From Desulfocapsa sulfexigens DSM 10523 (lineage in GTDB: Bacteria; Desulfobacterota; Desulfobulbia; Desulfobulbales; Desulfocapsaceae): DNA of 32,000 bases. Below the pieces are notes generated by a model. That model was not told the origin of the DNA, made no database searches, and was given only the letters and a program-made list of their open reading frames with translations. Shown here piece after piece: positions 808 to 30,016 of the stretch (positions are counted from its first letter, which is position 1; each line of letters starts with the position of its first letter). Made by a program: the position numbers and the translations under genes. The stretch spans positions 1,350,001 through 1,382,000 of the forward strand of contig NC_020304.1 of NCBI RefSeq assembly GCF_000341395.1, written 5' to 3'.

Positions 808-1674
808 TTATTCAACGATGTCCCGATACTCTGTGAGTTTGTCTTTGTCTTCATAAGAGTAATCAGCCAGCACTTCATCGGGATCAATGTAGTAGATGTT
901 TGGCATGGTTTTGGCTTCAGGCTTCATTGTTGTTTTGTTACGATTTTCCAGAAGGTTGAACTCCTTGGCGAGTTTGGCTACATCACTGTTGGGATCGTTG
1001 AGATCACCAAAGATACGGGCACCAGGAGCACAGGTATTAACACACGCCGGAGTTATGCCTTCATCCAGGCGATGAACACAGGAGGAGCATTTTACGATGG
1101 CATTTTTACTCTTATCCTTCCCTGACAGCTTTCGTTTGTTGAACGTACGAGCACCATAAGGACAGGCATCGATACACTTCCCACAACCGGTACATGCGTC
1201 ATTATCGATAAGAATCAATCCATCTGGACGTTTATAGGTGGCACCACCGCGGTAGCGAATCTTTTTCCCTTCTGCTGTGACGAAGACACGGCGATCTTTT
1301 GGGTATTCGGGGCAGGCCTTGACACAGGGCGGTACGGTCATGTCTCCTACCTTCTCGGTTCCCTCGCAGTGATTGCAGCGACGGGGAATAAGGGTGCGCC
1401 TGGTATCAGGATACTTACCTGTAACTACCTGTTTAATTACGGTTTTAAAAGCTCCGAGTGGTACGTCATACTCTGCTTTGCAGGCCACTGTGCAGGCCCG
1501 ACAGCCGGTGCAGCGGCGCAAATCCATTATCATCACCCACTGCGGTGTTTTGACTTCGGCGGCTTCTGCTTCTTTTGGTTGCAGCAGGCTTACTGATGCG
1601 AGTCCGGCCGCAGCCAAAGATACTCCGGTGACCCGAAGCATTTCCCTGCGATCATCTCTTGTGTTAGTGGTCAT
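808..1674 (-). CDS. 4Fe-4S ferredoxin-type electron-transfer subunit (PsrB/PhsB/DmsB-like) with Tat signal
   Basis: 288-aa ORF. N-terminal RREMLRVTGVSLAAAGLAS resembles a Tat leader. It carries multiple Cys clusters (CTGCRACTVACK, CNHC, CTGCGKCIDACP, CSSCVHRL...C..C). It lies directly upstream of the Mo subunit on the same strand. Confidence 0.9.
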   Translation of the reverse strand: MTTNTRDDRREMLRVTGVSLAAAGLASVSLLQPKEAEAAEVKTPQWVMIMDLRRCTGCRACTVACKAEYDVPLGAFKTVIKQVVTGKYPDTRRTLIPRRCNHCEGTEKVGDMTVPPCVKACPEYPKDRRVFVTAEGKKIRYRGGATYKRPDGLILIDNDACTGCGKCIDACPYGARTFNKRKLSGKDKSKNAIVKCSSCVHRLDEGITPACVNTCAPGARIFGDLNDPNSDVAKLAKEFNLLENRNKTTMKPEAKTMPNIYYIDPDEVLADYSYEDKDKLTEYRDIVE

Positions 1675-1817
1675 GACCTCCTCCTCGATTCTCTGTTTCT
1701 GTTATGGCTTGTATGATGCAAGCCCGTTTGTATGTCCCTGATATTTCAGGTGCTACATTCTACAATTGAAAGTTTTTTCTTTTCTGACTGCCTACAAAGC
1801 CCAGCCATTTTTATTCG

Positions 1818-3218
1818 TCATTCCTGCTTTTCTGCTTCAGCCTCTTCGGCAAGAGGTTCCAGTTCATCAAGAACGGTGTAGACACTATTGAGTCCCTCAT
1901 CAATCAACATGATTGAATACTTCTTGTTATGAACGCCGTTACCAAATTCCACGAGATCCAATGCCTTTTGTCCCGTTGCAAGAGTCTTTATGAACTCGGC
2001 TATCTGCTCCTCACTGAGCTGATCTTTGAGCTTGACGATCAGGCCTTCAGCACGTGCTTTTTCTTCTTTGGCAAAGCTTACCTCGGTCTGAACTTCTTTG
2101 ATCCAGTCGGCCAACAATTTTTCATGATCCTTGGTGTGACAATCCACACAGGATTTAGCTGAACCACGGAGGATCTTTTCACCCTTATGTATTTCAGGTT
2201 TGTCATGGCAACCCTGACAGTTAGTCTTAACCGGATTCATCAAGCTTGGTGTTTCTGGAACTCCGCCATATGCTGCACCAAGGAGGAGGGCCTTCTGGAG
2301 ACTATGATGGTCTGGATGACAGCTGGCACAATTGATACGGGCGGCTTCAATGAAATCACCTTCCTTATGGATAAGGGGCTGGTGGCAGTCAGCACACTGG
2401 GCCTTCTGTTTGGCCACATGCTCCGTATGCATGAGTTTCATCTCATATCTTTTTTCGAGCACCATCTTGTCGCTGTGGCACTTCTCGCAGGATCCGGGAA
2501 TGAGATCCGTTTCACCGGTGATTACCTGGTAGTGACAGGACTCACAGGAAACACCAGCCTTCTCAAGACTCTGATGAGTAATTACTGCCTGGTCAGGATC
2601 GAGTGGTGCATCTTTTTTCTGTGATTGCAGAGGAGTGGTTGGGATTTCGTGGCAAAGATTGCAGGCAGCGCGACCTTTATTGAATTCCGTATTTCTGAAA
2701 TGACAGACGTAGCATTGCTCTTTGGGAACTTCGAAATGCTTCTCATCACTGGCCTTGATATGGCAGGTTGTGCAGTGCATCTCCTGGCCGGGGATGGTCT
2801 TCTCATAATGGGCCTTATGGGTAAACTTGACTTTTTTCTCCTTTCCATAGGTCAGCTGCTTATCCATAAATTTTTCAGATGGATGACACTGGGCCGTTGA
2901 ACAGGAAATATCTGCAATATGAGTAGCCCTGCGAACTTCTTTGTCATCGGTGGAGAGATAGGTGAAGAGTTGCCCAAGGCCTTTGAACTTGGCATGGAGG
3001 GTCATCTTTTCTCCGGGTGCATAATGGCAGACGACACAGGAAATTTCTTCTTTACCAGCCTTGCCATGTTTATCTGCCTGCCAGCTCTTGTAAGGTTTAT
3101 CCATGATATGGCAGCTGGTTCCACAGAATTGCGGTCGCGCCGTATAGGATTCAACGGAAAAGACCATAGCAGCGCTTATGGCAGCAATTACAACAATGAT
3201 CAGTACTATTTTCTTCAT
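1818..3218 (-). CDS. Membrane-anchored multihaem cytochrome c (11 CxxCH plus one Cx4CH site), NapC/NirT/NrfH-like N-terminus
   Basis: The track ORF is 1818..3263. I prefer the ATG at 3218 (MKKIVLIIVVIAAISAAMVF, a TM anchor), which is preceded by GGGGAGA. Haem motifs are CGTSCH, CVVCH, CSTAQCH, CTTCH, CYVCH, CNLCH, CESCH, CEKCH, CADCH, CASCH, CQGCH and CVDCH. The C-terminal ~100 aa are haem-free with an acidic tail. Confidence 0.9.
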   Translation of the reverse strand: MKKIVLIIVVIAAISAAMVFSVESYTARPQFCGTSCHIMDKPYKSWQADKHGKAGKEEISCVVCHYAPGEKMTLHAKFKGLGQLFTYLSTDDKEVRRATHIADISCSTAQCHPSEKFMDKQLTYGKEKKVKFTHKAHYEKTIPGQEMHCTTCHIKASDEKHFEVPKEQCYVCHFRNTEFNKGRAACNLCHEIPTTPLQSQKKDAPLDPDQAVITHQSLEKAGVSCESCHYQVITGETDLIPGSCEKCHSDKMVLEKRYEMKLMHTEHVAKQKAQCADCHQPLIHKEGDFIEAARINCASCHPDHHSLQKALLLGAAYGGVPETPSLMNPVKTNCQGCHDKPEIHKGEKILRGSAKSCVDCHTKDHEKLLADWIKEVQTEVSFAKEEKARAEGLIVKLKDQLSEEQIAEFIKTLATGQKALDLVEFGNGVHNKKYSIMLIDEGLNSVYTVLDELEPLAEEAEAEKQE

Positions 3219-3269
3219 GCAGATATTCTCCCCTTGTATACAAAATGATACTATGAACCTCACATCTAA

Positions 3270-3285
3270 TGCACAAAGGGTGCCA
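3270..3285 (-). promoter_or_regulatory. Sigma-54 (-24/-12) promoter for the cytochrome / Fe-S / Mo-enzyme operon
   Basis: The minus strand reads TGGCACCCTTTGTGCA, with GG-N10-GC spacing and a match to TGGCAC-N5-TTGCA at all key positions. It sits about 52 nt upstream of the ATG at 3218 and immediately downstream of a sigma-54-dependent activator gene. Confidence 0.6.
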
Positions 3286-3336
3286 AGAAAAAGGGGTTGG
3301 AATTACAGGGAAAAACGAATTGTACGGAGGGGGATT

Positions 3337-3374
3337 GCTTAAAGAATAGACAGGCTGCTGTCTATTCTTTAAGC
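3337..3374 (-). terminator. Perfect 17-bp stem / 4-nt loop hairpin overlapping the response-regulator stop codon (terminator/insulator, or activator binding site)
   Basis: GCTTAAAGAATAGACAG-GCTG... pairs perfectly over 17 bp; I paired it by hand. It lies between the regulator stop (3369-3371) and the sigma-54 promoter. No clear U-tract follows on the minus strand, so the function is ambiguous. Confidence 0.4.
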
Positions 3375-4751
3375 AGAAGGAAGTTTTTTTCTCAAGGTCA
3401 TCCGATTGATGCCAAGGAGATTGGCGGCCTGAACTTGATTACCGTCACAGAGATCAAGGGCCTTTTTAATCAGGATCTGTTCGACTTCGGATAAGAGGTG
3501 GCGATAGGGACGTGATTCGTCACCCTTGATCAGTTTGTCGATCTGGCTGGATACAACCTGCTCAAAATCACCTGCAGTCTCAGTAGGGTTCTGAAGAACA
3601 CAATCCTCTGCCGTAAGAACCCTGGCCTTTGCTAAAACAATGGCTCTGCGAATGGTGTTTTCCAGTTCACGAATATTGCCGGGCCAGGAGTGGTGAGAGA
3701 GTTTCGCAAGGGCTTTATCACTGATCCCTTCCACTGCTGGAGATACCTGACGACCGTAACGGGAGAGAAAGTAGAGGATCAAATCCGGCAGGTCTCTTAT
3801 CCTCTGCCTCAGTGGTGGTATGGTGATGGTCAGGACGTTAATTCGGTGTAACAGGTCAAGGCGGAACAAACCATTCTCTGCCATTTTCTCAAGATTTCTG
3901 TTACTGGCAGCGATAAGTCGCACATCGGTTGTTAATTGTTTGTTGCTGCCCAATCGTTCAAAAGTTCCATCCTGGAGAACCCGTAGAACTTTAGCCTGAG
4001 ATCCAAGTGGTAGTTCCCCGATTTCATCAAGAAAGAGAGTTCCCTGATGACACTGTTCAAAGCGACCGATCCGCTGTTTGCTGGCACCGGTAAAAGCACC
4101 TGTTTCATAGCCGAAGAGTTCACTTTCCACCAGTTCATCGGGCAGGGAGGCGCAGTTTACCACCATAAACGGGCCATCTTTACGAGAACTGTGTTGGAGA
4201 ACGGCCCGGGCAGTCAGCTCTTTCCCCACTCCGGTTTCCCCGGTAATAAGAACCGGCAGATCAGATCCAGCCATCTGGCCAATCTTTTTGCACATGTCCA
4301 AAACCTCAGGGCTGGAACCGACAATGCATTCCTGAGAGGTTCTCATGTCCTCCCACTCTTTACCACAGCCACAATGCAGTTCCGCTTGGATTCTGCAGGA
4401 TATCAGGGCTGTGTCGATCACCTGACGCATCTCATCATTATCGAAAGGCTTGGTAACATAGTCAAAGGCACCGTCTTTCATTGCCTGCATAGCGGAAGCG
4501 GAGTCGGCAAAGGCGGTCACCATGATAATTGGAAGATGGGGGTGCAGTTTTTTGATAATCGTAAGTGCTTTCAGCCCATCCATACCCGGCATGCGGATGT
4601 CCATGAGCACCACATCCGGCATCTCTCTGTCCACCGCTTCAATAGCCTCTTTACCGTTTTCAGCGGTACGAATGGTATATTCGTCACTAAAGGTCCGTTT
4701 AAAGGCGTAACGGACTGCTTTTTCATCATCAACAATGAGCAGAGTTGTCAT
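3369..4751 (-). CDS. Sigma-54-dependent two-component response regulator (NtrC family enhancer-binding protein)
   Basis: 460 aa. It has a receiver domain (VVLMDIRMPGMDG). Its AAA+ domain carries GETGVGKE, the GAFTGA loop (ESELFGYETGAFTGA) and an RxxxR region. The C-terminal Fis-type HTH reads NQVQAANLLGINRMTLRKKL. Confidence 0.95.
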   Translation of the reverse strand: MTTLLIVDDEKAVRYAFKRTFSDEYTIRTAENGKEAIEAVDREMPDVVLMDIRMPGMDGLKALTIIKKLHPHLPIIMVTAFADSASAMQAMKDGAFDYVTKPFDNDEMRQVIDTALISCRIQAELHCGCGKEWEDMRTSQECIVGSSPEVLDMCKKIGQMAGSDLPVLITGETGVGKELTARAVLQHSSRKDGPFMVVNCASLPDELVESELFGYETGAFTGASKQRIGRFEQCHQGTLFLDEIGELPLGSQAKVLRVLQDGTFERLGSNKQLTTDVRLIAASNRNLEKMAENGLFRLDLLHRINVLTITIPPLRQRIRDLPDLILYFLSRYGRQVSPAVEGISDKALAKLSHHSWPGNIRELENTIRRAIVLAKARVLTAEDCVLQNPTETAGDFEQVVSSQIDKLIKGDESRPYRHLLSEVEQILIKKALDLCDGNQVQAANLLGINRMTLRKKLPSA

Positions 4752-6168
4752 AGGGCAAGATTAGTAAGAGTGAGGTCCCTTCGCGTTCACGAGAGATGAT
4801 GTCAAGACGGCCACCATGCTGCTGGGCAATATTCCAGGCTACAGCCAGACCCATGCCGGTACCGTCCTCCTTGGTGGTAAAGAAGGGATCAAAGATATGT
4901 TTGAGATTTTCTTCTGATATCCCATCACCTGTATCAGTAATTGTGCAGTTCAGAGCGCCATCGATGAGAGAGGTGCTTATTGTCAGTTTTCCCCCGGATG
5001 GCATTGCCTGCAAGGCATTCAAGATTCCATTCATCAGGATCTGCTTGATACTTGGCCCGTCTACTTGTATTGGCTCGAGTGTATCTTCCAGTATTTTTTC
5101 AATATGAACCCCAGATTTTTCTATTTTTGGCCCGGTGATGGCCAGTACATCTTCAACCAGACCATTTATATCAGTATCAGCAAAGGCCATTTCAGACCGC
5201 CGGGCAGAACGAAGAAAACGACTGACAGTAGAATCAATCCTGTCCAGTTCCTCTACTATAACCTCAAGATCTTCCCCTTGTAGTGGCTCTTCCTGTTCTT
5301 CGGCTCTTTGGATCAACATCTTAATTGAGGTCAGGGGATTTTTGATCTCATGGGCGAGACCTGTGGAAAATTCTCCAAGGGCGTAAAGTTTTTCAGTACG
5401 AACCAGATTTTCCTGAGCTGACCTGATTGCAGTTACCAGCTCTTTGAGTTGGCGGGACATGGTATTAAACGTGGTCGCCAGTTCGCCTATTTCTCCGACG
5501 CCTTTTTCAGGAATTGCCGTACCAAAATCACCTTCACCAACTTTATGAGCGGCACGATTAAGGAGCAGTATGGGAGAGATTAACTGTCTTGCCATCCATA
5601 GTGCAGCCAGAATGCCTATAACCAAAATGATACCAGTAATTGCCCATACTTTTTGTCTGGAAGTCTGCAAGGTATTGAAGAGTGGTTGTACAGAGATACC
5701 CAGACGAAGATATCCCGCAACACCAAGTTGTCTGGAACTAATGGGAATAAGAAGATCCAGGGGTTTTTTTCTGTCTGCCTCCGTAACGTCCCGGAGGAAA
5801 ACTGCACGTTCCATGGCGGGATCAAAAAAAGCTATGGGAGGGCGTACGATGGGTTCCCGCTCTCGCGCAAGAATAAGTTCTCCCTGATCATTATAAATCT
5901 CACCATAGACAAGAAAACGCTCCTTTGATTCCAGGTAGGATTGGAGGTGACTATAGAGTGTATAGTCCTCATCATAGAGCAGTGGCTCAAGAAGCTGCTG
6001 AGGCATGATTTCACCCAGCTGTAAGGCTCGAATACGAAGATCTTCCTGTAAAATACGTTTTTCATCACGCAGGACAAGGCTTGCAACGGACAAAGCTGTC
6101 ACCACAACAACGGTCACTATCGATACGGAGAGACGTACCGCAATGCGATTATACCAATGCAATACCAT
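4729..6168 (-). CDS. Sensor histidine kinase (2 TM, periplasmic loop, HAMP, HisKA, HATPase_c)
   Basis: 479 aa. H-box GLAHEIKNPLTSI; N/G boxes (NALQAM, DTGDGI, GTGMGLAV). It overlaps the regulator start by 23 nt, consistent with an operon. Confidence 0.9.
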   Translation of the reverse strand: MVLHWYNRIAVRLSVSIVTVVVVTALSVASLVLRDEKRILQEDLRIRALQLGEIMPQQLLEPLLYDEDYTLYSHLQSYLESKERFLVYGEIYNDQGELILAREREPIVRPPIAFFDPAMERAVFLRDVTEADRKKPLDLLIPISSRQLGVAGYLRLGISVQPLFNTLQTSRQKVWAITGIILVIGILAALWMARQLISPILLLNRAAHKVGEGDFGTAIPEKGVGEIGELATTFNTMSRQLKELVTAIRSAQENLVRTEKLYALGEFSTGLAHEIKNPLTSIKMLIQRAEEQEEPLQGEDLEVIVEELDRIDSTVSRFLRSARRSEMAFADTDINGLVEDVLAITGPKIEKSGVHIEKILEDTLEPIQVDGPSIKQILMNGILNALQAMPSGGKLTISTSLIDGALNCTITDTGDGISEENLKHIFDPFFTTKEDGTGMGLAVAWNIAQQHGGRLDIISREREGTSLLLILPYDNSAHC

Positions 6169-6200
6169 AGTTCTACCTGCTTCCCCTCATTATAAAGCCC

Positions 6201-7076
6201 CTATTCTTTCAGCTGTTTCTGCAGCAAAAGTGCAGAACGGTACAGCCCGGGTGTTGCGATGGCAAAGCCATCCATTTCAAGGTGTTGTAGCACAATCTTA
6301 CCTCGGGGATCAGTAGCCATGCCAAGCAGTATTTTCAGCAGAGTTCGTTTGGTCTCCTTGTCAAGAGTTGGAGTTACGACCACGGGAGGCATACCAAATT
6401 CCTCGGATTTGTGAATAACACGAACTTCTTTAGCAAAAGAATGCGGCAATTTATAGAGCGAATCAAAAATAAGACTGTCCACAGCCGCACCATTCGCAAT
6501 CCCTGTTGCAACAGCCTCAATGGATTTGTCATGACTTTCTGTATAAAATGTTTTTTTAAAGAATTGTTTTGTCATATGTCCAAGACTGTTCAGTGTTGCC
6601 ACAGGGTAGATACGCCCACTGAACGATAAGGGATCAGTGAAAGCAAAAATCTGGCCCTGAAGCTCTTCAAGTGTGCTTGCCGGGTTGTCTTTGGCGGTAA
6701 TGATATATGACTGATAGGCGGTTTTTCCGTTGACGACTGGTACTGCCAGGACTTCCAGACCAAAGGACTTTCGGCCGGCAAGATATCCACCTGTGCAGGT
6801 AAATGCCATCTGCACGCTTGCATCATAAAGCAGCGTGTTGATTTCTTGGTAGGTACGGCGCTGTTTCAGGTGGACGTGGATTCCCAGTTTTTCTTCCAGG
6901 TACTGGCGAAACTCGGCAAAGTGGATCAGGGTTTGGGCCGGAGAAGCCATTGCTGAAACGGCAAAGAAGAAATGATCAGCGTGCTCATCTCCTTCTGGCT
7001 GAGCTGACGCCTGGCCAGGAAACAGCATGAAGAGCAATAAACCAACAATAAGAGAACTGTATTTAATTTTCAGCAT
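6201..7076 (-). CDS. PhnD/SsuA-like periplasmic substrate-binding protein (phosphonate-ABC-type SBP fold), likely co-sensor of the adjacent kinase
   Basis: 291 aa with a signal peptide (LLLFMLFPGQASA). The pattern resembles PhnD-family SBPs (FAVSAM...Y..L...LG, GG.LAG). No ABC permease or ATPase gene is nearby; it sits directly upstream of the HK-RR pair. Confidence 0.75.
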   Translation of the reverse strand: MLKIKYSSLIVGLLLFMLFPGQASAQPEGDEHADHFFFAVSAMASPAQTLIHFAEFRQYLEEKLGIHVHLKQRRTYQEINTLLYDASVQMAFTCTGGYLAGRKSFGLEVLAVPVVNGKTAYQSYIITAKDNPASTLEELQGQIFAFTDPLSFSGRIYPVATLNSLGHMTKQFFKKTFYTESHDKSIEAVATGIANGAAVDSLIFDSLYKLPHSFAKEVRVIHKSEEFGMPPVVVTPTLDKETKRTLLKILLGMATDPRGKIVLQHLEMDGFAIATPGLYRSALLLQKQLKE

Positions 7077-7414: not shown

Positions 7415-7801
7415 TTATGCTGATCGTATTTCAATAGTTCTGGGCATAGCAGCCTCGGCCTTTGGTAAATGAAGTTTAAGGGTTCCGTCTTTGAGTTCAG
7501 CATTTACTTTTGCAACATCGATTGTTTGAGGTACCGAAAACACTCGTTTGTATTCAACATCATAAAACTCTTGCCAGGTTTCGACTCCCTTCCTTTGCAG
7601 GTTTCTGACACCTGAAATTTCCAGTTTTCCATTATCTACATTTACTGAAATTTTATCTTTCGTTACACCTGGCATATCAGCATGGAGCAATATCTCTTCA
7701 TCATTTTCATATATATCCACTACAGGGGCAATAGTCGCCAGATCTTGCTGTTTTTCGACCATATTCTCTGTTCTTTTTGTGATTTCCATGTTTTTATTCA
7801 T
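7415..7801 (-). CDS. Small heat-shock protein, Hsp20/alpha-crystallin family
   Basis: 128 aa. The alpha-crystallin domain pattern is present (DIYENDEEILLHADMPGV.KD.I.V.V..G.L.ISG ... F.R.F.VP..ID...V.A.LKDGTLKL.LPK). GGAGG RBS. Confidence 0.9.
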   Translation of the reverse strand: MNKNMEITKRTENMVEKQQDLATIAPVVDIYENDEEILLHADMPGVTKDKISVNVDNGKLEISGVRNLQRKGVETWQEFYDVEYKRVFSVPQTIDVAKVNAELKDGTLKLHLPKAEAAMPRTIEIRSA

Positions 7802-7844
7802 TATTTTACCTCCAATAACTCATGATATAGATAAAATGAACTCC

Positions 7845-8273
7845 TTAGTTGATAGTAATCTGTTTGGGTTTAGCAGATTCTGCTTTAGGAAGTACCAGCG
7901 TTAACAGACCATCTTTCAAGACTGCGTCAATCTTATCAGCGTCAACGTCAGCGGCAAGAGTAAAACTACGCGTAAATGTAGATAAATTACGCTCGACTCT
8001 ATGAGTTTTATATCCTTCAGGGGCATCGGATTTTCGGGTGCCGCTTATTTCGAGGTAGTTACCTTGGATCCTGATATTTAGATCTTCTTTATTGACCCCA
8101 GGAACCTCTGCAATCATCTGAAATGAATCCCCATTGTCATACATGTTCGTTTTAGGGAAGCCGCCTGCAACCCTCCAGCCTGAACTTTCACCATAGGACC
8201 GGTCAGAGTTAATTGAACGAAGCAGATCCATAGCGGAAAACATACGATCAATATCATTCATTCTTGTCCACAT
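7845..8273 (-). CDS. Small heat-shock protein, Hsp20/alpha-crystallin family (second, tandem copy)
   Basis: 142 aa: ...FQMIAEVPGVNKEDLNIRIQGNYLEISGTRK ... F.RSFTL...VD.DKI.A.LKDGLLTLVLPK. GGAGG RBS 7 nt upstream of the ATG. Confidence 0.9.
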   Translation of the reverse strand: MWTRMNDIDRMFSAMDLLRSINSDRSYGESSGWRVAGGFPKTNMYDNGDSFQMIAEVPGVNKEDLNIRIQGNYLEISGTRKSDAPEGYKTHRVERNLSTFTRSFTLAADVDADKIDAVLKDGLLTLVLPKAESAKPKQITIN

Positions 8274-8307
8274 AACTGTACCTCCTTTTTCAGTTGCTCT
8301 TTTTTGC

Positions 8308-8325
8308 CGCTGCTTCTAAGCAGCG
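8308..8325. promoter_or_regulatory. 18-bp near-perfect palindrome CGCTGCTT-CT-AAGCAGCG in the hsp20 leader/promoter region
   Basis: 8+8 complementary bases with a 2-nt centre, 35-52 nt upstream of the hsp20 ATG (8273). It does not match the CIRCE consensus. The function is not established. Confidence 0.3.
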
Positions 8326-8496
8326 CAGGTGTTTACATTTTATAGCTTATGTTTTTAATGAAATACCAAGCTCATGTGGCATTGTTCTTACACTATCATT
8401 GCTCTTTGACCCAAAAATAAATACGGTGAGTTTCTGTGTCAATACTGTGGAAAATATTTTTTGCATTAACCTTAAAAATTACTTTAAAGGCTGCAG

Positions 8497-8525
8497 TTGA
8501 CAAAGTAATATCCGCTCGGTATTTT
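8497..8525 (+). promoter_or_regulatory. Candidate sigma-70 promoter for the 195-aa ORF
   Basis: TTGACA (8497-8502), a 17-nt spacer, then TATTTT (8520-8525). AAGGAGG follows at 8533-8539 and the ATG at 8546. Confidence 0.4.
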
Positions 8526-8545
8526 TGTAAGAAAGGAGGTTTGAA

Positions 8546-9133
8546 ATGAATGACAAGAGCAAATTAAGTCTTTTGGAACAGTCGAGGATTTCTTTTGAAG
8601 ATCTAAGGATGAAACAATCTGTTCGGACTACATTCAAATTGCCAGAGGAAGTTATTGCCTTACTTGGCATAATTGCAGCTCAGTTGGGTATTAAACAGAA
8701 ATCTCTTCTCGACCAGTTAACTGAAGATTCCAGATTGCTCTTTAAGTTAGCCAAAGAGGTGAATACAACCACCAGTGGCAAAGAAAAGCGCCAGGCGAAG
8801 ACGTTTGTAATCAGTAGAAGTTCTCTGAACTCAATTAACGAGGTGGCTAAAAAGCAGAAGGTTCCTCGAGATATACTTGTGGAAATATCTATAAAACGAT
8901 TGTTGCCAATTATTGAAGGAGAACTCGAAAAACACATTAAGAGAAAGCAGATCCTTGAGGAAATGAAAGAGTTCGTTGAGCAAGGTGAAACACTTCGAGA
9001 TCAAGCCAGACAGGCGCTAGGTGAAAATGACGATATTTATGAGATGATTGATGGACAGATCCAATTGGCTAAGAAAAATCTCACGACAGTCAAAGGTATA
9101 ATAAAGAAAGGGATGCCCATGGAAGATTGGTAA
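8546..9133 (+). CDS. Hypothetical protein; two ribbon-helix-helix-like segments followed by a charged helical tail (putative DNA-binding regulator)
   Basis: 195 aa with a strong RBS. Two segments have a strand-helix-helix pattern: VRTTFKLPEEVIALLGIIAAQLGIKQKSLLDQL and KTFVISRSSLNSINEVAKKQKVPRDILVEISIKRL. The fold assignment comes from reading the sequence only. Confidence 0.6.
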   Translation: MNDKSKLSLLEQSRISFEDLRMKQSVRTTFKLPEEVIALLGIIAAQLGIKQKSLLDQLTEDSRLLFKLAKEVNTTTSGKEKRQAKTFVISRSSLNSINEVAKKQKVPRDILVEISIKRLLPIIEGELEKHIKRKQILEEMKEFVEQGETLRDQARQALGENDDIYEMIDGQIQLAKKNLTTVKGIIKKGMPMEDW

Positions 9134-9217
9134 GATTTGGCGTGTTGCTCTTGATAGCCAGTGATAGGGTATAGTAATACAAAATTAAACTATACGATAC
9201 TTTTCCATTATGTTATA

Positions 9218-9244
9218 AATCAATAATTTAATTGATTATATAAT
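9218..9244 (+). promoter_or_regulatory. Palindromic operator-like site abutting a perfect -10 box upstream of the giant helicase gene
   Basis: AATCAAT (9218-9224), a 6-nt spacer, then ATTGATT (9231-9237), followed by TATAAT at 9239-9244. No good -35 is present. The ATG is at 9281 with an AAGGAA RBS. Confidence 0.35.
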
Positions 9245-9280
9245 GCCTGTTTTGGTTACGATGATTTCCAAGGAATAGGG

Positions 9281-12200
9281 ATGCCCAACAATAGCCAGGA
9301 ATTTCTTGCCCGTTGTCTCTTGTTTGATATTGAAACAAATGAGAACGGTGAGATATATGCCTTGGGCGCGTCTTTTAGTGGCAAAAAGTTTAATACCCGA
9401 CAAGGGCAGAAGGTAACGCTCCACCAACTGGCAGAGTTTGACGATTTTGGTCGCAATGCTGAGTTTGTTGTTGGCCACAATGTCCTGGCACATGATATCC
9501 CATTTCTTCGTGAACAAGATTCTTCACTGTCAATCCTGCAGAAGCCGGTAATTGATACTCTTTATCTTTCCCCTTTGGCTTTTCCAGAAAATCCCTATCA
9601 TCGATTAGTTAAAAATTACCAGATAGTCAGAGACAGTATCAACGATCCTGCAGAAGATGCTGTGCTGGCTGGCAGGGTCTTTACTGAACAGTGGGATGCC
9701 TTTTCTCAGCGGCTTAAGAGTGGATCTGATGCCCCGTTGATTTACAGAAGTTTTTTTCAAAAGGACGAAAAGTTTGTCGGCACATCTGATGCTCTTGGAG
9801 CAATGGGTGTGCCTCTTATTGAGGAAGATGAACTTTATGAAGTTTTTTCCTGGTTGGTTCAGAAGGATGTCTGTGGGGAAGCTTTGGAAAGACTTGTTGA
9901 TCAACTCGTTGATCAACGAATTGAGCATCCTCCATTAGCCTATGTCACTGCCTGGTTGACAGTTTCCGGGAGTAATTCGGTTCTTCCACCATGGGTCCGG
10001 CATCATTTTCCTGTAGTACCCACTCTCATCCATCAGTTACGAGAACAGCCTTGCAAGAATTCTCAATGTATCTATTGCAGCACAAATCATAACCCCCAGT
10101 TATTTCTAAAGAATTATTTCGGTTTTGAAGATTTCCGGTCACAACCCGCAACCGAGGATGGTCAAAGCCTGCAAGAGGCTATTGTAACAACTGGTGCTCG
10201 CAATTCTACTCTTTTTGCTACGTTACCTACGGGTGGCGGGAAGACTCTTTGTTATCAATTGCCTGCATTGATGCGGTATCGTCGAAGCAATGCATTGACT
10301 GTCGTCATCTCACCTTTGCAGGCCCTGATGAAAGACCAGGTGGACAACTTCACAAAACAGACTGGTAGTACATTGGCCACAGCCATAAATGGTATGCTGA
10401 CCATGCCTGAAAGAGGCGAGATTATGGACGGGGTCAGATTGGGTGATGTGGGGATTCTGTACGTCTCGCCGGAACAGCTGCGCAATAAATCGTTTGTCCA
10501 AACCATTAGTCAACGTGAGATCGGTGCCTGGGTCTTTGATGAAGCGCATTGTCTGTCCAAGTGGGGCCATGACTTCCGTCCTGATTATCTCTACTCTATT
10601 CGTTTTATCAGGGAATTTTCCCAGCAGGAAAAAACGAAAATCCCACCTGTTCAGTGTTTTACTGCCACAGCCAAGAAAGATGTACAATCAGAGATTATCG
10701 ATATTATTGGGCGAGAACTTGGCCTGCGGGTCATTCAATTTGCTGGAGGGCATGAGCGACAGAATCTCCACTATGAAGTATGGCCAGTAGATACCTATGA
10801 AAAGAATCAAACCATCCTGACGCTACTCAAAACCCGGTATGATAACAAAGGTAGTGTGGTCATCTACTGTGCTACCCGTAAGAACACTGAAAACCTGGCT
10901 GAGTTTTTGGCTAATGCAGGCTATACGGTGGAGGCTTTTCATGCTGGCCTTGAACCCTTTGTCAAAAAACGCATCCAAAACGATTTCATTGCTGGCGAAA
11001 TTCCCATTATCTGTGCCACTAACGCCTTTGGTATGGGCATTGACAAAGATGATGTCCGATTGGTCATCCATGCCGATATACCAGGCTCTTTAGAGAACTA
11101 TCTTCAGGAAGCTGGGCGTGCAGGACGAGACCGCAATGAGGCTGAGTGTATCCTGATTTTCACAGAGCAGGACGTTGAGGGCCAGTTTCGCATGAGCAGC
11201 AACTCGCGTTTGACTCAAAGGGAGATCGGTCAGATTTTACGTGGCCTGCGCCATTCTGCCAAGGAAGATGGAAAAGTAGTGTTGACCTCCGGGGAAATTC
11301 TCAGGCTCGGAGTTGTGGACATCGATGAGGATGAATTTGGCCAAGATAGGGATACCAGAGTTAAGACAGCAGTTTCTTGGTTGGAGAGGACAGGCTTTCT
11401 GAATCGAGATGAGAATAACACCAGGGTGTTTCAGGGAAAGCCTCTTGTCCGCAATATTGAAGAAGCCAGGGAGAAGATAGAAGAACTTGATCTTTCCAGC
11501 AGACAACAGAAACGTTGGCTTGCTATTCTTGCTACCCTGATGGAAAGCCCTCCCAGTCAGGGGTTTAGTGCTGACGATCTGGCCTGCCTGACTTCCTTTG
11601 CTCGCACTTCCGATGATCCTGAAAGCGAAACCGAAACTCAACGTGTGTTGCGTACTCTCAACGATATGGCAGAACAGGGCCTGCTCTCAAAAGAGACTAT
11701 CCTCTCAGCCTATGTCCGTTATAAGGTTAAAGGGAGCTCTGAGAAACTACTCAAACGTTTTTGTCAGGTGGAAAAAGATTTTCTGAAAATACTCGAGGAA
11801 ATATCACCAGATGTAGATCTTGATAAAAACCTGGTGATAGATCTCCGGCAGGTCAATCAGCGTCTTATCGACTTGGGCCATGACTATAGTACACCAAGCA
11901 GTTTAAGCCTGGTGCTCCGAGGTTTGAGCCGTGACGGTAAGGGCTTGGCAGGTCAGAGGGGGAGTATCAGTATTAAATCCAGAGGGAATAATCTCTTTTC
12001 CATCATGCTCCACCGGGATTGGGAATCTTTGAAAAAGACGGTAGCCATCCGGCAGCAGGCAGCCCATGTGGCTCTGCAGATTATTCAGGCCCCTTTGACA
12101 GATAAGATCTCTCCCAATGCCTCTCTTCTTTTGGAATTCACTCTTGAGGCAATTGTTGAAGGATTAAAAAGAGATCTGGTCCTCTTTTCTGCACTCAAAG

Positions 12201-14452
12201 ATCCGTTGGCTGCAGCGGAACGAGCTTTAACCTTCATGCATGAGCAGGGGGTGATTGAACTGCAACAAGGGCTGGCGGTGTTCAGGCAGGCTATGACTAT
12301 CACCATCAATCCAGAGTCCAAGGGTAAGCAATACACAAAGGCTAACTTTGAACCGTTAAAGACTCACTACTCAGAAAAGAACTTTCAGGTCCACGTAATA
12401 AATGAGTATGCCAGGTGTGCCATAAATAAGATCAGCGTGGCTATGAACCTGGTGCACTCATACTTTAATGATGAAAAGGAAGAATTTGTAAGCCGCTTTT
12501 TTCCTGGTAAGGAGGAGTTACTGGAAAGAGCTACCAGTGAACAATCGTATCAGCGAATTGTGGAGGATTTAAACAACCGAGCGCAAGAGGAAATTGTCTC
12601 CGCACCAACTGATAATAACGTCTTGATATTGGCTGGACCGGGAGCTGGTAAAACCAGAACAGTGGCACATCGAGTAGCCTTTTTGCTGAGAGTCAAAAGG
12701 GTTCGACCTGAGGCTATTCTAGTGCTCTGTTTTAATCGGAGTGCAGCGATGGGTCTACGCCGAAGACTGCGGGAACTGGTTGGGAAAGAGATGGCTTGGG
12801 TCACAACGCTAACTTTCCATGGTCTGGCCTTGAGACTGACTGGTAGGTCTCTCGTCAGGCAGACAACCGAGGTACCTCAAGAAGGAATTGACTTTTCTCA
12901 AGTCATCCAAGATGCCATTGCCTTACTCAAGGGAGAGTGCGATGTCCTTGGTTTTGTAGATGGTCAACCAAGAGATGAGCTGATGTCCAGATTCAGTCAT
13001 ATTCTTGTAGATGAGTATCAAGATATTGACGAGGAACAGTATGAGTTGGTTTCATTGTTGGCAGGAAGGACTTTAGATGAAAAGGAACAGAAACTGACTA
13101 TCTTGGCAGTTGGGGATGACGATCAAAATATCTATCGATTTCGGGGGGCAAATGTTGATTTTATTCGACGTTTCAAGGCAGATTACAAGGCGAATGTCCA
13201 CTATTTGACCGAAAACTACAGATCCTCGGTGAATATCATAGCAGCAGCCAATGGACTCATTGTTCACAACCAAGATAGGATGAAGACAGAGCATCCTATT
13301 CAAATTAACAGGGCAAGGGCTACATTACCTCCAGGTGGAAACTGGCAACTCAGTGACCAGGTTGGGCAGGGGAAGGTTCAGTGTCTTCATGTCAAAAATA
13401 AGGTCACACAGGCCCTTGTCCTTTTCGAAGAGTTGCAGCGTTTGCAAAGCCTCAGTAGTGATTTTGATTTGAATGGATGTGCAATATTGGCCAGGGAATG
13501 GCAGGAGTTGGATGTCATCCGCTCGGTCTTTGAGGCAGAGGGAATTCCTGTAAGTCTTAATTGGGGCAGGAGTGCCTTCCCAGGTTTGGCACGTATTAGA
13601 GAAAATGCTGACTTATTAACCTTTCTTCACAATTGCAGCTTAGAACAGATTACGGCAAAATCACTTTTGGATCTTCTGCCCGAGAAAGGATTAAACGAAA
13701 ATATTTGGCAGGCGAACTTGAGGACCTTGATTGGTGAGTGGCTGGATGAAACAAACAATACTCCGCAACCGATTGGACGAGTAGAGAGCTACTTTTATGA
13801 GGCTTTGGCGGATCAGCATCGCTCAAGAAATCTGGATAATGGTATCTTTCTTTCCACGGTTCACTCAATAAAGGGATTGGAGTTTGACCATGTCTTTGTT
13901 CTGGATGGCAGTTGGCAGAATAAACTTGGTCCAGAGATGGAAGAAGAGCGCAGGCTTTATTATGTGGCCATGTCCAGAGCCCGAGAGACCTTGCAACTTT
14001 TTGCAATTGAGAATTCGCAGAATCCACATATCAAAACTCTGGATGGTGATTTTCTGATTTCCAGAAGGGTCGTTCCTTCTCACAAGGTTCCGCGAATGGT
14101 TCCGCATTATGAATTACTGGGTATGAAAGATCTTTTTATTGATTTTGCGGGGTTTAAAAAAGAAAATGACCCTACCTGCAGGGTCATTAAGGAACTTAAG
14201 ATGGGAGACAGTCTGACAGTAAGGAGGGGAAACAAGTATCTGCACCTTTTTAATCATGTAGGAATCCCGGTGGCCCGTCTTTCGAAAACGGCCCAGGAAA
14301 GATGGCAAAATCGTTTGAATAGTGTCAGCCAAATAAAGGTTGTTGCTTTGGCCAGACGGTACAAGACGGACATCAAGGATCAGGAATATCAAAAAAGATG
14401 TCAAAGTGACAGTTGGGAAGTACCTATTGTTGAGCTCAGTTATTTTGATTAA
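9281..14452 (+). CDS. Giant multidomain protein: DnaQ-like DEDD 3'-5' exonuclease + RecQ-family helicase core + UvrD/PcrA-family helicase + unassigned C-terminal ~100 aa
   Basis: A single uninterrupted 1,723-aa ORF. Exonuclease motifs are LLFDIETN (nt ~9320-9340), VVGHNVLAHDIPFL and NDPAEDAVLAGRVF. RecQ motifs are LPTGGGKT (nt ~10224-10247), VISPLQALMKDQV, VFDEAHCLSKWGHDFRPDY (DEAH at 10538-10549), CFTATA, ATNAFGMGIDKDDVRLVIH and QEAGRAGRD. UvrD motifs are AGPGAGKT (12635-12655), VDEYQDID (13007-13024), AVGDDDQNIYRFRGA, TENYRSS, STVHSIKGLEFDHVFV and YYVAMSRARETL. Confidence 0.9.
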   Translation: MPNNSQEFLARCLLFDIETNENGEIYALGASFSGKKFNTRQGQKVTLHQLAEFDDFGRNAEFVVGHNVLAHDIPFLREQDSSLSILQKPVIDTLYLSPLAFPENPYHRLVKNYQIVRDSINDPAEDAVLAGRVFTEQWDAFSQRLKSGSDAPLIYRSFFQKDEKFVGTSDALGAMGVPLIEEDELYEVFSWLVQKDVCGEALERLVDQLVDQRIEHPPLAYVTAWLTVSGSNSVLPPWVRHHFPVVPTLIHQLREQPCKNSQCIYCSTNHNPQLFLKNYFGFEDFRSQPATEDGQSLQEAIVTTGARNSTLFATLPTGGGKTLCYQLPALMRYRRSNALTVVISPLQALMKDQVDNFTKQTGSTLATAINGMLTMPERGEIMDGVRLGDVGILYVSPEQLRNKSFVQTISQREIGAWVFDEAHCLSKWGHDFRPDYLYSIRFIREFSQQEKTKIPPVQCFTATAKKDVQSEIIDIIGRELGLRVIQFAGGHERQNLHYEVWPVDTYEKNQTILTLLKTRYDNKGSVVIYCATRKNTENLAEFLANAGYTVEAFHAGLEPFVKKRIQNDFIAGEIPIICATNAFGMGIDKDDVRLVIHADIPGSLENYLQEAGRAGRDRNEAECILIFTEQDVEGQFRMSSNSRLTQREIGQILRGLRHSAKEDGKVVLTSGEILRLGVVDIDEDEFGQDRDTRVKTAVSWLERTGFLNRDENNTRVFQGKPLVRNIEEAREKIEELDLSSRQQKRWLAILATLMESPPSQGFSADDLACLTSFARTSDDPESETETQRVLRTLNDMAEQGLLSKETILSAYVRYKVKGSSEKLLKRFCQVEKDFLKILEEISPDVDLDKNLVIDLRQVNQRLIDLGHDYSTPSSLSLVLRGLSRDGKGLAGQRGSISIKSRGNNLFSIMLHRDWESLKKTVAIRQQAAHVALQIIQAPLTDKISPNASLLLEFTLEAIVEGLKRDLVLFSALKDPLAAAERALTFMHEQGVIELQQGLAVFRQAMTITINPESKGKQYTKANFEPLKTHYSEKNFQVHVINEYARCAINKISVAMNLVHSYFNDEKEEFVSRFFPGKEELLERATSEQSYQRIVEDLNNRAQEEIVSAPTDNNVLILAGPGAGKTRTVAHRVAFLLRVKRVRPEAILVLCFNRSAAMGLRRRLRELVGKEMAWVTTLTFHGLALRLTGRSLVRQTTEVPQEGIDFSQVIQDAIALLKGECDVLGFVDGQPRDELMSRFSHILVDEYQDIDEEQYELVSLLAGRTLDEKEQKLTILAVGDDDQNIYRFRGANVDFIRRFKADYKANVHYLTENYRSSVNIIAAANGLIVHNQDRMKTEHPIQINRARATLPPGGNWQLSDQVGQGKVQCLHVKNKVTQALVLFEELQRLQSLSSDFDLNGCAILAREWQELDVIRSVFEAEGIPVSLNWGRSAFPGLARIRENADLLTFLHNCSLEQITAKSLLDLLPEKGLNENIWQANLRTLIGEWLDETNNTPQPIGRVESYFYEALADQHRSRNLDNGIFLSTVHSIKGLEFDHVFVLDGSWQNKLGPEMEEERRLYYVAMSRARETLQLFAIENSQNPHIKTLDGDFLISRRVVPSHKVPRMVPHYELLGMKDLFIDFAGFKKENDPTCRVIKELKMGDSLTVRRGNKYLHLFNHVGIPVARLSKTAQERWQNRLNSVSQIKVVALARRYKTDIKDQEYQKRCQSDSWEVPIVELSYFD

Positions 14453-21126: not shown

Positions 21127-22305
21127 TCACACCAATTTTTTAAGTATTTTTAAAACAAATGAATATGAGATTCTCTCCTGTTCAAGCCTTAAAGCATCCC
21201 GGAGAAGGTTTTTTACCAGAAACTCATAAATGCCTAGTTCCTTTTCATCAAGGCGAGTCAGGCTCCGTCTTGTAGGTTTACTCTCTTGGCCCCAAAGTGA
21301 TTCATGAGCCATTAGTGTTTCTCTATCCATCAAAAAAGAACTGGCCTGAGGAAAGTAAGAGCGGAGCTGGTCAAGCATTACGTAGCCGTGTGTATCAATA
21401 TCACCCCAGTAATGGATTTTTTTACCCAGTAGCCATTGAATATTGGCCAAACGATCCAGTCCGAACCCCAGTCCAAAGATGATAATTGCGTTTTTCACAT
21501 TTGGAAACGCTAAGCCATTGATTTCATTTTCAGTAATGAAGACATGATCAACTTCCAGGTTCAATGCACAAAACTCGGATACCGGTACATGAAGATCCGA
21601 CAATCCATGAAGATATAGATCAGGATCGAGGATTCGAAAGCGGACCTGAACCGGTTTAGAGAGGAACCCATAACGTTCCTCAAACCTTTTTGCTCCGGTT
21701 GCACTACTCTCGATCATTTCTTTCGACAGAATAAGATCCAGCAACTCACTTAGGGGTTTTTTATGTTTTTCAATGAACTTGGTATCAACTTCAGGAATTT
21801 CCAATTGACGTACATAAATTCCTGGACGAGGATTACTCTTAAGATACTTCAACACAGCCAATAGTCTTGGCCACTGTTTTTGATACTGGAGAGCAACAAG
21901 CGGACGCTTTTCCAGCCAGGACCTCAGTTCTGGGAAATCAGCAAGAATCTGACAGCATAACTCGTCAAATATTCGGGCCGCACTCAGTTTTCCAATGAAC
22001 GAAAGAATGGACTCGTCCGTCTTAAAAAGAACTGCTTGGGGAAAGCTGTTTCGCCCTAACTGACGATGGTTCACTTCCTGTGACTCTATTGTGAAAGCTC
22101 CATGTGTTTCTGCCTCAATCAGTTCATCCACCCATGCCTTTGCAGTATCCCACTTCTCAGCCCACTCATTTCCAAGTGGTCTTTTCAATGTGATTCGCCT
22201 GGGACAGAGATCTTCACCACGTAACCGGGCCGAAAGCAACTTGCCCTGCTCCCACTCCCGCTCGAGCTTCTTTCGTAAATCTTTAATGCTGCTCCAGTTG
22301 CTCAA
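21127..22305 (-). CDS. jetD: Wadjet JetD (DUF3322 + DUF2220/Toprim-like nuclease subunit)
   Basis: 392 aa. The C-terminal HYWGDIDTHGYVMLDQLR is the Toprim-like DxD signature of the JetD/MksG family. It is last in a jetABCD-ordered operon. The apparent TTG start at 22305 overlaps the jetC TGA stop by 4 nt. Confidence 0.85.
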   Translation of the reverse strand: MSNWSSIKDLRKKLEREWEQGKLLSARLRGEDLCPRRITLKRPLGNEWAEKWDTAKAWVDELIEAETHGAFTIESQEVNHRQLGRNSFPQAVLFKTDESILSFIGKLSAARIFDELCCQILADFPELRSWLEKRPLVALQYQKQWPRLLAVLKYLKSNPRPGIYVRQLEIPEVDTKFIEKHKKPLSELLDLILSKEMIESSATGAKRFEERYGFLSKPVQVRFRILDPDLYLHGLSDLHVPVSEFCALNLEVDHVFITENEINGLAFPNVKNAIIIFGLGFGLDRLANIQWLLGKKIHYWGDIDTHGYVMLDQLRSYFPQASSFLMDRETLMAHESLWGQESKPTRRSLTRLDEKELGIYEFLVKNLLRDALRLEQERISYSFVLKILKKLV

Positions 22306-25679: not shown

Positions 25680-26299
25680 TACTCCACCTCTTCTTCATCG
25701 CAGGAATTTTCACCCTGCAGGTGGGTCTTATACTCCTTCAGGCGTTGATCCATTTCATTGAGCCAATGTGCATTGATATACGCCTTGAGTATACGTTTCA
25801 CTTCTATCATATTTTCTTTCCCGGGAAGCCTGCGAATAAAACCCAGTTCAACCACCTTATTGATATGGGCATCGATTTTATCAACAAATTTGGCCTCGTT
25901 TACCCCCGACGGCAGAAACGTGCTCACCATATCCACCACATCATCCCGGCTCATAATCAAACGAGTATCGTCCCCTGATGCATCAAATTCGGCAAGTCTA
26001 TAGCGAAAAAGAGCAAGTAGCAGACTGACGGGATAGGATAACTGCCTCCGCCCCACCAACCGGGGAAGAGGCTCCTCCTCGCCCTCCGGTTCTTTATACT
26101 TTAAAAAGGCATACCCCTCCGACTCATCGAGCAGAAGGAATAACCCAAGGACAGATACATATTCAGAAACCGCAGTCTGTACGGTAAGTAAATGCTGCCA
26201 AAGTGCAGGGTCAGCCTCCTGATACACGACTCCTTTCAGCAGGTTGATGACTATTTTTGAAATTCCTGGTTCTGGATTGCTCATATTGGTCATGCTCAT
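25679..26299 (-). CDS. jetB: Wadjet JetB (DUF4194, MukE/MksE-like)
   Basis: The track ORF extends to 26332. I prefer the ATG at 26299 (MSMTNMSNPE...), which forms an ATGA overlap with the jetA stop. LLKGVVYQEADPALWQHLL is typical of DUF4194. Its stop, TAA, shares one base with the jetC ATG (TAATG). Confidence 0.85.
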   Translation of the reverse strand: MSMTNMSNPEPGISKIVINLLKGVVYQEADPALWQHLLTVQTAVSEYVSVLGLFLLLDESEGYAFLKYKEPEGEEEPLPRLVGRRQLSYPVSLLLALFRYRLAEFDASGDDTRLIMSRDDVVDMVSTFLPSGVNEAKFVDKIDAHINKVVELGFIRRLPGKENMIEVKRILKAYINAHWLNEMDQRLKEYKTHLQGENSCDEEEVE

Positions 26300-28676: not shown

Positions 28677-28678
28677 AA

Positions 28679-29903: not shown

Positions 29904-29988
29904 AACGCCATTCCCTATTCTAGATTCCAGAATAAAGAATAGACTTATATTAAAAAAACTCAACCCCTTATTTAAAAGCCCTTTTAAA

Positions 29989-30016
29989 TCCGTTCATTCG
30001 ACATCTTGAGAAACAG
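29989..30016 (-). pseudogene. 28-nt scrap of a second hsdM copy at the truncation junction of the IS3 remnant
   Basis: 29989-30016 (TCCGTTCATTCGACATCTTGAGAAACAG) aligns with 28547-28574 inside the hsdM N-terminus at 26 of 28 positions. Of these, 18 consecutive positions are identical (29999-30016 = 28557-28574). It encodes LFLKMSNE versus LFLKMSDE. Confidence 0.6.

Follow-up and report, generated by a model that had tools for sequence, protein, structure and literature searches.

RecQ and UvrD, both textbook helicases, work as separate proteins, and the locus described here raises the question of what a protein that joins both in one chain, together with an exonuclease-type domain, might do. 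The gene lies in a stretch of 32,000 nt of the Desulfocapsa sulfexigens DSM 10523 genome (NC_020304.1, positions 1,350,001 to 1,382,000), referred to here as the window, within which positions are counted. It encodes a protein of 1,723 amino acids (aa) in which a DnaQ/DEDD-type exonuclease fold, a RecQ-family superfamily 2 (SF2) helicase core, a family-specific linker, a UvrD/PcrA/Rep-type superfamily 1A (SF1A) helicase core and a probable HIRAN-like beta-barrel follow one another. A first-pass annotation, made from the sequence alone, had put forward this gene and a small gene directly upstream as its best candidate for an undescribed defence or genome-surveillance system of two genes. Here, we describe a computational analysis of the protein, its relatives and their genomic contexts. 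The architecture is unusual, widespread and unstudied, and the family is large, deeply conserved and uncharacterised; the results do not support a two-gene defence system. We give an even chance to the proposal that the protein is a stand-alone, single-chain machine for genome maintenance that acts by processing DNA 3' ends.

Domain architecture and conservation of the family

The single uninterrupted open reading frame (ORF) reported in the first-pass annotation was borne out (Table 1), and the fusion of three enzymes in one chain is genuine as well as unusual, as indicated by Pfam matches for both helicases and by a structure model and weak profile matches for the exonuclease. The two helicase cores were recovered by the models DEAD (aa 297-469), Helicase_C (508-617), UvrD-helicase and AAA_19 (1102-1303) and UvrD_C (1511-1575), whereas models of exonucleases and of the RecQ zinc-binding and winged-helix regions did not reach threshold. 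Motif conservation was counted in 70 complete proteins from several phyla, in which the catalytic residues of the DEDD motifs, of RecQ motifs I-VI and of UvrD motifs I-VI are invariant or nearly so. The two segments that had been left unassigned, a linker of ~450 aa and a C-terminus of ~130 aa, are both real and conserved in the family.

The N-terminal domain is modelled as a DnaQ/DEDD exonuclease fold, although none of the exonuclease models reaches its Pfam threshold on the 1,723-aa protein. An AlphaFold (AF2) model of aa 1-275, built on an alignment of 67 diverse sequences, has a predicted local distance difference test score (pLDDT) of 92.6, and its best PDB matches in Foldseek are all of the DnaQ fold: the exonuclease of Staphylococcus aureus DinG (9ii8), a TREX1 homologue, and the proofreading domains of Escherichia coli Pol II and T7 polymerase. 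Weak matches to polymerase exonuclease subunits in PHROGs and to PolC and epsilon exonucleases in NCBIfam point the same way. Exo I is formed by D16 and E18, Exo II by H66-N67 and D72, and Exo III by N121-x4-D126, and none of the 70 proteins lacks any of the four acidic residues (D16, E18, D72 and D126). The first-pass annotation had correctly read Exo III as N-x4-D, and this proves to be a trait of the whole family: position 121 is Asn in 68 proteins, Ser in two and His in none. Neither the His of DEDDh enzymes (H-x4-D) nor the Tyr of DEDDy enzymes (Y-x3-D) is thus found in the family as the fifth catalytic residue. An invariant pair, Y106-H107, is sited near Exo III in a flexible loop (aa 105-120) that is poorly ordered in the model.

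The exonuclease fold is joined to a purely helical domain in which W225, G230, S233, P236 and W238 are conserved. Directly before the RecQ core lies a cluster of C258, C263, C266 and H270 (CCCH), which is found in every one of the 70 proteins and which, from its sequence pattern, is a putative zinc-binding site. This cluster, the family-specific character of the linker and the HIRAN-like C-terminus are features absent from the first-pass annotation.

The RecQ core passes the family threshold of NCBIfam TIGR00614 (recQ_fam; 295.5 bits against a cutoff of 219.8). The Walker A motif GGGK[ST] (GGGKT here), the DEAH motif, the aromatic-rich loop SKWGHDFRP and motif VI (QEAGRAGRD) are invariant in the counted proteins, and a motif 0, FGFEDFRSQ, can be read straight from the sequence of the core. 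The RecQ equivalog model TIGR01389, in contrast, scores 347 bits against a cutoff of 640.2, and its match is limited to profile positions 4-344 of 591. Profile searches of the 1,723-aa protein returned no match to RQC, RecQ_Zn_bind or HRDC even at E <= 10, and a single Cys follows motif VI. Its SF2 motifs and the NCBI threshold therefore place the protein in the RecQ family by sequence, and not among RecQ orthologues.

Similarly, UvrD-helicase (146.2 bits) and UvrD_C (88.9 bits) both exceed their cutoffs on the SF1A core, which AAA_19 matches as well. Its Walker A motif GPGAGKT (GKT) and the motifs DEYQD, VGDDDQNIY, ENYRS, HxxKGLEF and VAMSRAR are invariant, whereas the equivalog models for UvrD, PcrA, Rep and helicase IV are missed, at 129-186 bits against cutoffs of 543-1144. 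Judged by these profiles, the protein holds a bona fide SF1A core and is no orthologue of RecQ, UvrD, PcrA, Rep, DpdF or GajB.

Searches of Pfam, NCBIfam, PHROGs and PDB sequences with the linker between the two cores gave no match, and hhalign detected no internal repeats of the winged-helix type within it. An array of winged helices is a conceivable reading of this region. Used as a phmmer query, it retrieved 781 clusters at 50% identity, whose complete members are ~1,700-1,790 aa long and carry the linker at ~640-1130. The C-terminus has no sequence-level relative in PDB, Pfam, NCBIfam or PHROGs. Its AF2 model (~120 aa; pLDDT 91.4) is a beta-barrel, and its best annotated Foldseek matches are HIRAN domains: 3k2y, Rad5 and HLTF from PDB at weak scores (E 0.014-0.4, template modelling score 0.35-0.5) and a phage 'HIRAN domain' protein from BFVD (E = 4.9e-3). 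Pfam HIRAN (PF08797) matched none of 38 family members at E <= 10. The domain contains an invariant W-E-x-P-x-x-E and is the least conserved portion of the protein. From these weak scores we regard it as probably HIRAN-like at the level of the fold and, by analogy, as a putative binder of DNA 3'-OH ends.

Full-length relatives at 60-88% identity make up more than 120 protein clusters, and at least 571 species in GTDB carry a homologue. A genome scan with one genome per species yielded 80 loci with full-length homologues (46-88% identity) in Desulfobulbales, other Thermodesulfobacteriota, Methylococcales, Oceanospirillales, Myxococcota, Verrucomicrobiota, Planctomycetota and Kiritimatiellota. 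The 80 loci come from at least eight phyla, and in them as in the 781 clusters the architecture is fixed at ~1,720 aa. Identity is 56-88% within Desulfobulbales, where it roughly tracks taxonomy, and 46-50% over the full length across phyla. Twenty plasmids or chromids carry the gene (in Rhizobium, Cereibacter, Paracoccus, Croceicoccus, Thiothrix, Allochromatium and Bacteroides) and, where annotated, label it 'RecQ family ATP-dependent DNA helicase'. It was found in none of 50,697 phage records, and among 2.9 million viral contigs (IMG/VR) a single one carries it, at the very edge of the contig.

In comparison with the closest strain (L094), the gene as a whole has a ratio of nonsynonymous to synonymous substitution rates (dN/dS) of 0.10, with 0.11 for the exonuclease, 0.05 for RecQ, 0.13 for the linker and 0.08 for UvrD; the C-terminus has a value of 0.42, derived from 16 substitutions only. 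Because of these regional values, every module is seen to be kept by purifying selection, with the C-terminus the least constrained.

Predicted role at DNA 3' ends and competing explanations

DEDD exonucleases, RecQ helicases, UvrD/PcrA helicases and the HIRAN domain of HLTF are all directed at 3' ends or move in the 3'->5' direction. Because each identifiable module has this same 3'-directed polarity, we propose, as the most economical account, a model of 3'-end unwinding and trimming. The HIRAN-like barrel would anchor the enzyme at a free 3'-OH end, for instance that of a nascent strand where a fork has stalled or regressed, or an end at a gap, D-loop or break. The UvrD-type SF1A and RecQ-type SF2 motors, both predicted to move 3'->5', would then unwind the duplex, strip bound proteins, or both, and the N-terminal DEDD exonuclease, if active in its Asn variant, would finally trim the released 3'-ended strand. 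In this predicted order of events a WRN-like exonuclease-RecQ unit, a UvrD/PcrA-like unit and an HLTF-like end sensor would work together in repair or under replication stress.

Several observations support a maintenance role. The catalytic motifs are invariant, selection is purifying and the architecture is fixed. The gene stands alone: all-against-all clustering of the flanking ORFs of the 80 loci revealed no conserved operon partner, so that no obligate partner gene accompanies the family. A few neighbours recur within subclades only (an SNF2 ATPase, DctP of a TRAP transporter, RNase PH, a pseudouridine synthase and SbmA), and the chromosomal housekeeping genes among the recurrent neighbours are RNase PH, DctP, the pseudouridine synthase, ValRS and ParE/ParC-like genes. 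Phage records lack the gene. Additionally, the pattern of identity within Desulfobulbales and the high identity across phyla appear, from sequence comparison, to fit a repair enzyme better than an immune gene that evolves fast.

Other points weigh against it. The cross-phylum distribution is patchy, and the gene resides on plasmids or chromids in Alphaproteobacteria and Gammaproteobacteria, which marks it as accessory and not core. Among 14 contexts with independent annotation, a small and taxonomically skewed sample, four have a defence system within 10 kb of the gene (Wadjet in the window, restriction-modification systems at locus L083 and in Allochromatium, and CRISPR I-D in Thiothrix), and toxin-antitoxin modules are present in five and insertion sequence (IS) elements or integrases in three, the rest being ordinary genes. 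Searches upstream of the helicase gene turned up neither an SOS operator nor any other that responds to damage. There is no evident mechanical reason for placing two motors of like polarity in a single chain, Exo III is without its usual His or Tyr, and the HIRAN assignment is built on weak fold scores. More generally, the function is predicted from sequence and structure models alone.

The most serious competitor, unlikely in our judgement but well short of negligible, is that the protein is a single-gene effector of defence against mobile elements or of 'genome surveillance', in which the C-terminus would recognise free 3' ends or replication intermediates of phage or plasmid DNA and unwinding and degradation would follow, as in RecBCD, Gabija and Nhi/Hna. 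Giant helicase-nucleases are common among defence effectors, and the PADLOC models DpdF, PsyrT and GajB match the two cores of this protein. These matches, however, cover the generic helicase core, with the DpdF equivalog at 201.8 bits against a cutoff of 550, and the partner genes of the known systems Gabija, Dpd and PsyrTA (GajA, the Dpd cluster and PsyrA) are absent, the neighbours in the window being Hsp20, 195-aa, transmembrane protein, MMPL, ABC1 kinase and TetR genes. A patchy distribution over many phyla, plasmids included, and a synteny that varies even among close relatives would suit a defence gene, but purifying selection is strong, identity across the order is high and phage genomes lack the gene. 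The C-terminus evolves fastest and is the least conserved part, as expected of a specificity module, although its dN/dS value is built on a handful of substitutions.

The genomic contexts are likewise divided. The four defence systems within 10 kb, and the toxin-antitoxin modules, IS elements and integrases nearby, would be in keeping with a defence effector, whereas most contexts are metabolic or housekeeping, and in a PADLOC search of the 149 nearest neighbours at 76 loci no defence family came up repeatedly. The only recurrent matches were generic ones to five SNF2 proteins, and the Pfam content of these neighbours is otherwise heterogeneous. Because a genome-wide background was not computed, the figure of four in 14 is suggestive of a 'flexible genome' placement and is not evidence of a defence role. 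The defence function inferred in the first-pass annotation is therefore not supported as stated: there is no conserved partner, no linkage to a ribbon-helix-helix (RHH) gene and no evident enrichment of defence genes in the contexts sampled. Conserved housekeeping synteny, with which that annotation would have been set aside, was not seen either, and for this reason a single-gene defence role is possible.

A second and decidedly doubtful alternative retains the motors of the maintenance model and makes the exonuclease-like domain non-catalytic. The DnaQ fold would bind 3' ends or regulate the motors, and the protein would be a dual-motor remodeller that clears RecA or RNA polymerase from DNA or reverses forks. 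Asn121 in place of the general-base His or Tyr, the poorly ordered loop of the model and the sub-threshold Pfam scores are all consistent with this. Degenerate exonuclease domains, however, usually lose their metal-binding acidic residues, and here all four are invariant across phyla; furthermore, the base that is lacking could come from the invariant Y106-H107, and the dN/dS of the domain is low.

The two-gene module of the first-pass annotation, in which the helicase would be the effector and a 195-aa RHH protein its regulator or antitoxin, is very improbable. A gap of 147 bp separates the genes, which share a strand, no terminator was found between them, and their adjacency is preserved in the closest strains. 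In tblastn, however, the 195-aa protein found nothing in the 80 homologous helicase loci (best E-value 1.1), and the closest helicase relative (88% identity) is without the 195-aa gene although 10 kb of its upstream flank is covered; the adjacency exists only in the immediate lineage of the window. The small protein has 321 relatives, nearly all of exactly 195 aa, and look-ups of three of its homologues gave five loci, in all of which, as in the window, the gene is divergent from two Hsp20 genes across a conserved promoter region. In Desulforhopalus sp. 52FAK and Desulfopila sp. IMCC35006 the gene that comes after it encodes a DnaJ-domain protein and not the helicase, and in the latter strain the 195-aa and helicase genes are on separate contigs. 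Thus, the 195-aa gene belongs to a conserved heat-shock locus of Desulfobulbales, whose Hsp20/195-aa intergenic region holds an invariant 17-mer, AAAAATAAATACGGTGA, and not to the helicase unit. As a conserved module the pair is refuted, and what is possible is a lineage-specific regulatory link between the two genes.

The tandem RHH segments that had been read in the 195-aa protein were not confirmed. The RHH-type matches are weak and confined to aa 22-57 (BrnA, E = 3.4e-4; phrog_3887, E = 5.7e-5), the second segment has a very weak YlxM-type match (E = 0.16), and no similarity between the two segments was detectable when they were compared with each other. This putative DNA-binding protein may be an undescribed regulator of the Hsp20 locus.

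Finally, the notion that an assembly or annotation artefact has joined separate recQ and uvrD genes, which the first-pass annotation had named as a possible refutation and which has nothing in its favour except the unusual size of the protein, deserves virtually no credence because the same full-length architecture recurs across hundreds of independent assemblies, including the isolates Desulfogranum, Desulfofustis, Desulfosediminicola and Methylomonas subterranea, complete plasmids and hundreds of metagenomes.

Genomic neighbourhood of the helicase gene

The features of the window are collected in Table 1. As the first-pass annotation had noted, a Wadjet system and a degraded restriction-modification locus lie nearby. 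Wadjet starts 6.7 kb downstream of the helicase gene, beyond unrelated transmembrane protein, MMPL, ABC1 kinase and TetR genes, and the truncated HsdM, IS3 and NERD genes at 28.2-31.5 kb (28185-31540) are the remnant of a restriction-modification locus broken by an IS element.

Table 1. Position and basis of the features of the window
Feature	Position	Strand	Basis or remark
Hsp20 genes	7415-7801 and 7845-8273	-	heat-shock unit, which spans 7415-9133 with the 195-aa gene
Hsp20/195-aa intergenic region	8274-8545		two conserved TTGACA-N17-TATTTT promoter-like sites
195-aa gene, not part of the helicase unit	8546-9133	+	Hsp20/Hsp20 <-> 195-aa (+DnaJ) locus
Spacer upstream of the helicase gene, 147 bp	9134-9280	+	conserved only in the lineage of the window
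Exonuclease-RecQ-linker-UvrD-HIRAN-like gene, 1,723 aa	9281-14452, including stop codon	+	uninterrupted ORF; full-length homologues at 46-88% identity; dN/dS 0.10
DnaQ/DEDD-type 3'-5' exonuclease fold, aa 1-150	9281-9730	+	AF2 model, Foldseek, weak profile matches, motifs in 70/70
Helical-only domain joined to the exonuclease, function not assigned, aa 151-257	9731-10051	+	model helices 151-254
C-x4-C-x2-C-x3-H cluster (CCCH), putative zinc knuckle, aa 258-270	10052-10090	+	invariant in 70/70
RecQ-family SF2 helicase core, aa 275-645	10103-11215	+	Pfam, TIGR00614, invariant motifs
Family-specific linker, aa 646-1095	11216-12565	+	conserved; no database relatives
UvrD/PcrA/Rep-type SF1A helicase core, aa 1096-1590	12566-14050	+	Pfam, invariant motifs
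C-terminal beta-barrel, probable HIRAN-like fold, aa 1608-1722	14102-14446	+	AF2 model, Foldseek
Multi-pass membrane protein, 516 aa	14685-16235	-	conserved (92%) in the closest strain only
Wadjet JetABCD, complete	21127-27735	-	JetA (DUF3375), JetB (DUF4194/MksE), JetC (SMC-like), JetD (DUF3322 + JetD_C)
HsdM N-terminal fragment, truncated, 162 aa	28185-28676	-
IS3-type rve transposase	30006-30779	+
NERD-domain protein	30776-31540	-

The 516-aa membrane protein that follows the helicase gene has no match in Pfam, NCBIfam or PHROGs. Homology to the closest strain stops at ~16.27 kb, before Wadjet, and an MMPL gene in the window is set against a RhuM gene there. Synonymous divergence from the same strain is 0.015-0.025 in the genes at 808-7076 and rises to 0.10-0.16 in the block from Hsp20 to the helicase, with the step at ~7.1-7.4 kb; the block looks like a recombination tract.

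The spacer contains a perfect palindrome, ATCAATAATTTAATTGAT (9219-9236; ATCAAT-AATTTA-ATTGAT), 62 nt before the helicase start and beside a TATAAT-like hexamer. Five related loci have similar sites between -74 and -98, with an overall frequency across loci that is not above background, and ATCAAT-N6-ATTGAT recurs in one subclade only. Palindrome and k-mer searches for a shared operator in 66 upstream regions gave nothing over shuffled or background levels.

Other loci offered observations on the neighbours of the helicase gene. In one Desulfobulbales lineage (L091/L092, 6094-9935) 66 bp separate the start of the gene from preceding ParE/ParC-like type IIA topoisomerase genes of the same strand, and on a Microvirga plasmid (L102, 4099-6546) a DNA topoisomerase gene lies 2 kb upstream; from these two cases only, there may be an association between helicase and topoisomerase genes. 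An SNF2-family ATPase of ~1,014 aa adjoins the helicase gene in five Desulfobulbales loci of a single subclade, upstream in L019, L027, L043 and L072 (with an overlap in two) and downstream in L037. The ATPase reaches no named family threshold, and SWIM zinc-finger proteins are encoded close by. A gene for a DUF6880 protein (~440 aa) is found upstream in two unrelated Desulfobulbales contexts (L082, 1-644, and L083, 6691-8007), and Fic-domain genes lie just downstream in L083 and L089; either may be coincidence. Lastly, three near-identical tandem gene pairs, each encoding a 101-aa DVU_0533-like and a 64-aa protein, are present ~5 kb downstream of the helicase gene in Desulfogranum marinum (L082, 20586-23689).

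Relation to known enzymes and significance

Full-text literature searches found no description of an exonuclease-RecQ-UvrD architecture. Among characterised enzymes, those nearest to it are WRN, Firmicute DinG, MrfAB, HLTF/Rad5 and the RecBCD/AddAB class. In WRN, too, a DnaQ-fold 3'-5' exonuclease lies N-terminal to a RecQ core in one chain and both activities are 3'-directed. WRN, however, is eukaryotic, of the DEDDy type and equipped with RQC and HRDC domains, whereas the present protein is bacterial, has Asn in Exo III, shows no detectable RQC or HRDC, carries the CCCH cluster before the core and continues after it with the 450-aa linker, a complete UvrD-type helicase and the HIRAN-like domain. 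The two fusions are compared here by likeness and not by descent.

Among bacterial enzymes, the DinG of Firmicutes (S. aureus and Bacillus subtilis) is an exonuclease-helicase fusion implicated in replication stress (PMC12525004), and MrfAB is a precedent for an exonuclease-helicase repair enzyme (10.1101/426304). DinG supplies the best structural match of the N-terminal domain; its single motor, unlike the two described here, is an XPD/DinG-type SF2 helicase of 5'-3' polarity, and it has no HIRAN-like domain. UvrD, PcrA, Rep and the defence paralogue GajB share the complete SF1A motif set, with UvrD-helicase and UvrD_C over threshold here, but the present protein is far under their equivalog cutoffs, its SF1A core is the C-terminal third of a larger chain, and it has no GajA-type partner. 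DpdF and PsyrT are the best PADLOC matches of the RecQ core, with which only the generic core aligns, and neither Dpd nor PsyrA partners accompany the gene.

The HIRAN domain binds 3'-OH ends and thereby directs fork remodelling. HLTF and Rad5 resemble the present protein in joining a HIRAN or HIRAN-like barrel to DNA motors, and an SNF2 ATPase gene adjoins the helicase gene in the five Desulfobulbales loci mentioned above; they differ in that the likeness here is weak and at fold level, without a Pfam HIRAN match, the domain sits at the C-terminus, and RecQ and UvrD motors stand in place of SNF2. RecBCD, AddAB and AdnAB also combine two helicase-type motors and a nuclease in one machine acting on DNA ends. 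These are multi-subunit complexes with PD-(D/E)XK nucleases of the RecB family, and the RecBCD motors have opposite polarity, whereas in the present protein a single chain brings together a DEDD nuclease and two 3'-5' motors that belong to different superfamilies.

A bolder generalisation, which we offer tentatively and hold to be possible rather than probable, is that the family represents a widespread and hitherto unrecognised class of bacterial single-chain 'end-capture' machines, in which a HIRAN-like sensor would direct two 3'-5' motors and an Asn-type DEDD exonuclease, either as a counterpart of WRN and HLTF at stalled forks or as a single-gene immune effector that destroys invading DNA via its 3' ends.

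With the small upstream gene recognised as a member of a heat-shock locus, a false lead is removed. The family has been hidden beneath the generic RefSeq label 'RecQ family ATP-dependent DNA helicase', and its homologues in Cereibacter sphaeroides and Rhizobium leguminosarum offer tractable hosts. Its architecture is a natural system for the cooperation of two same-polarity motors within one polypeptide, and the proposed maintenance role would give a bacterial parallel to the eukaryotic biology of WRN and HLTF. The hard-wiring of RecQ and UvrD to a proofreading-type exonuclease, a 450-aa domain without relatives and a probable 3'-end binder, in at least eight phyla, points to an unstudied 3'-end pathway.

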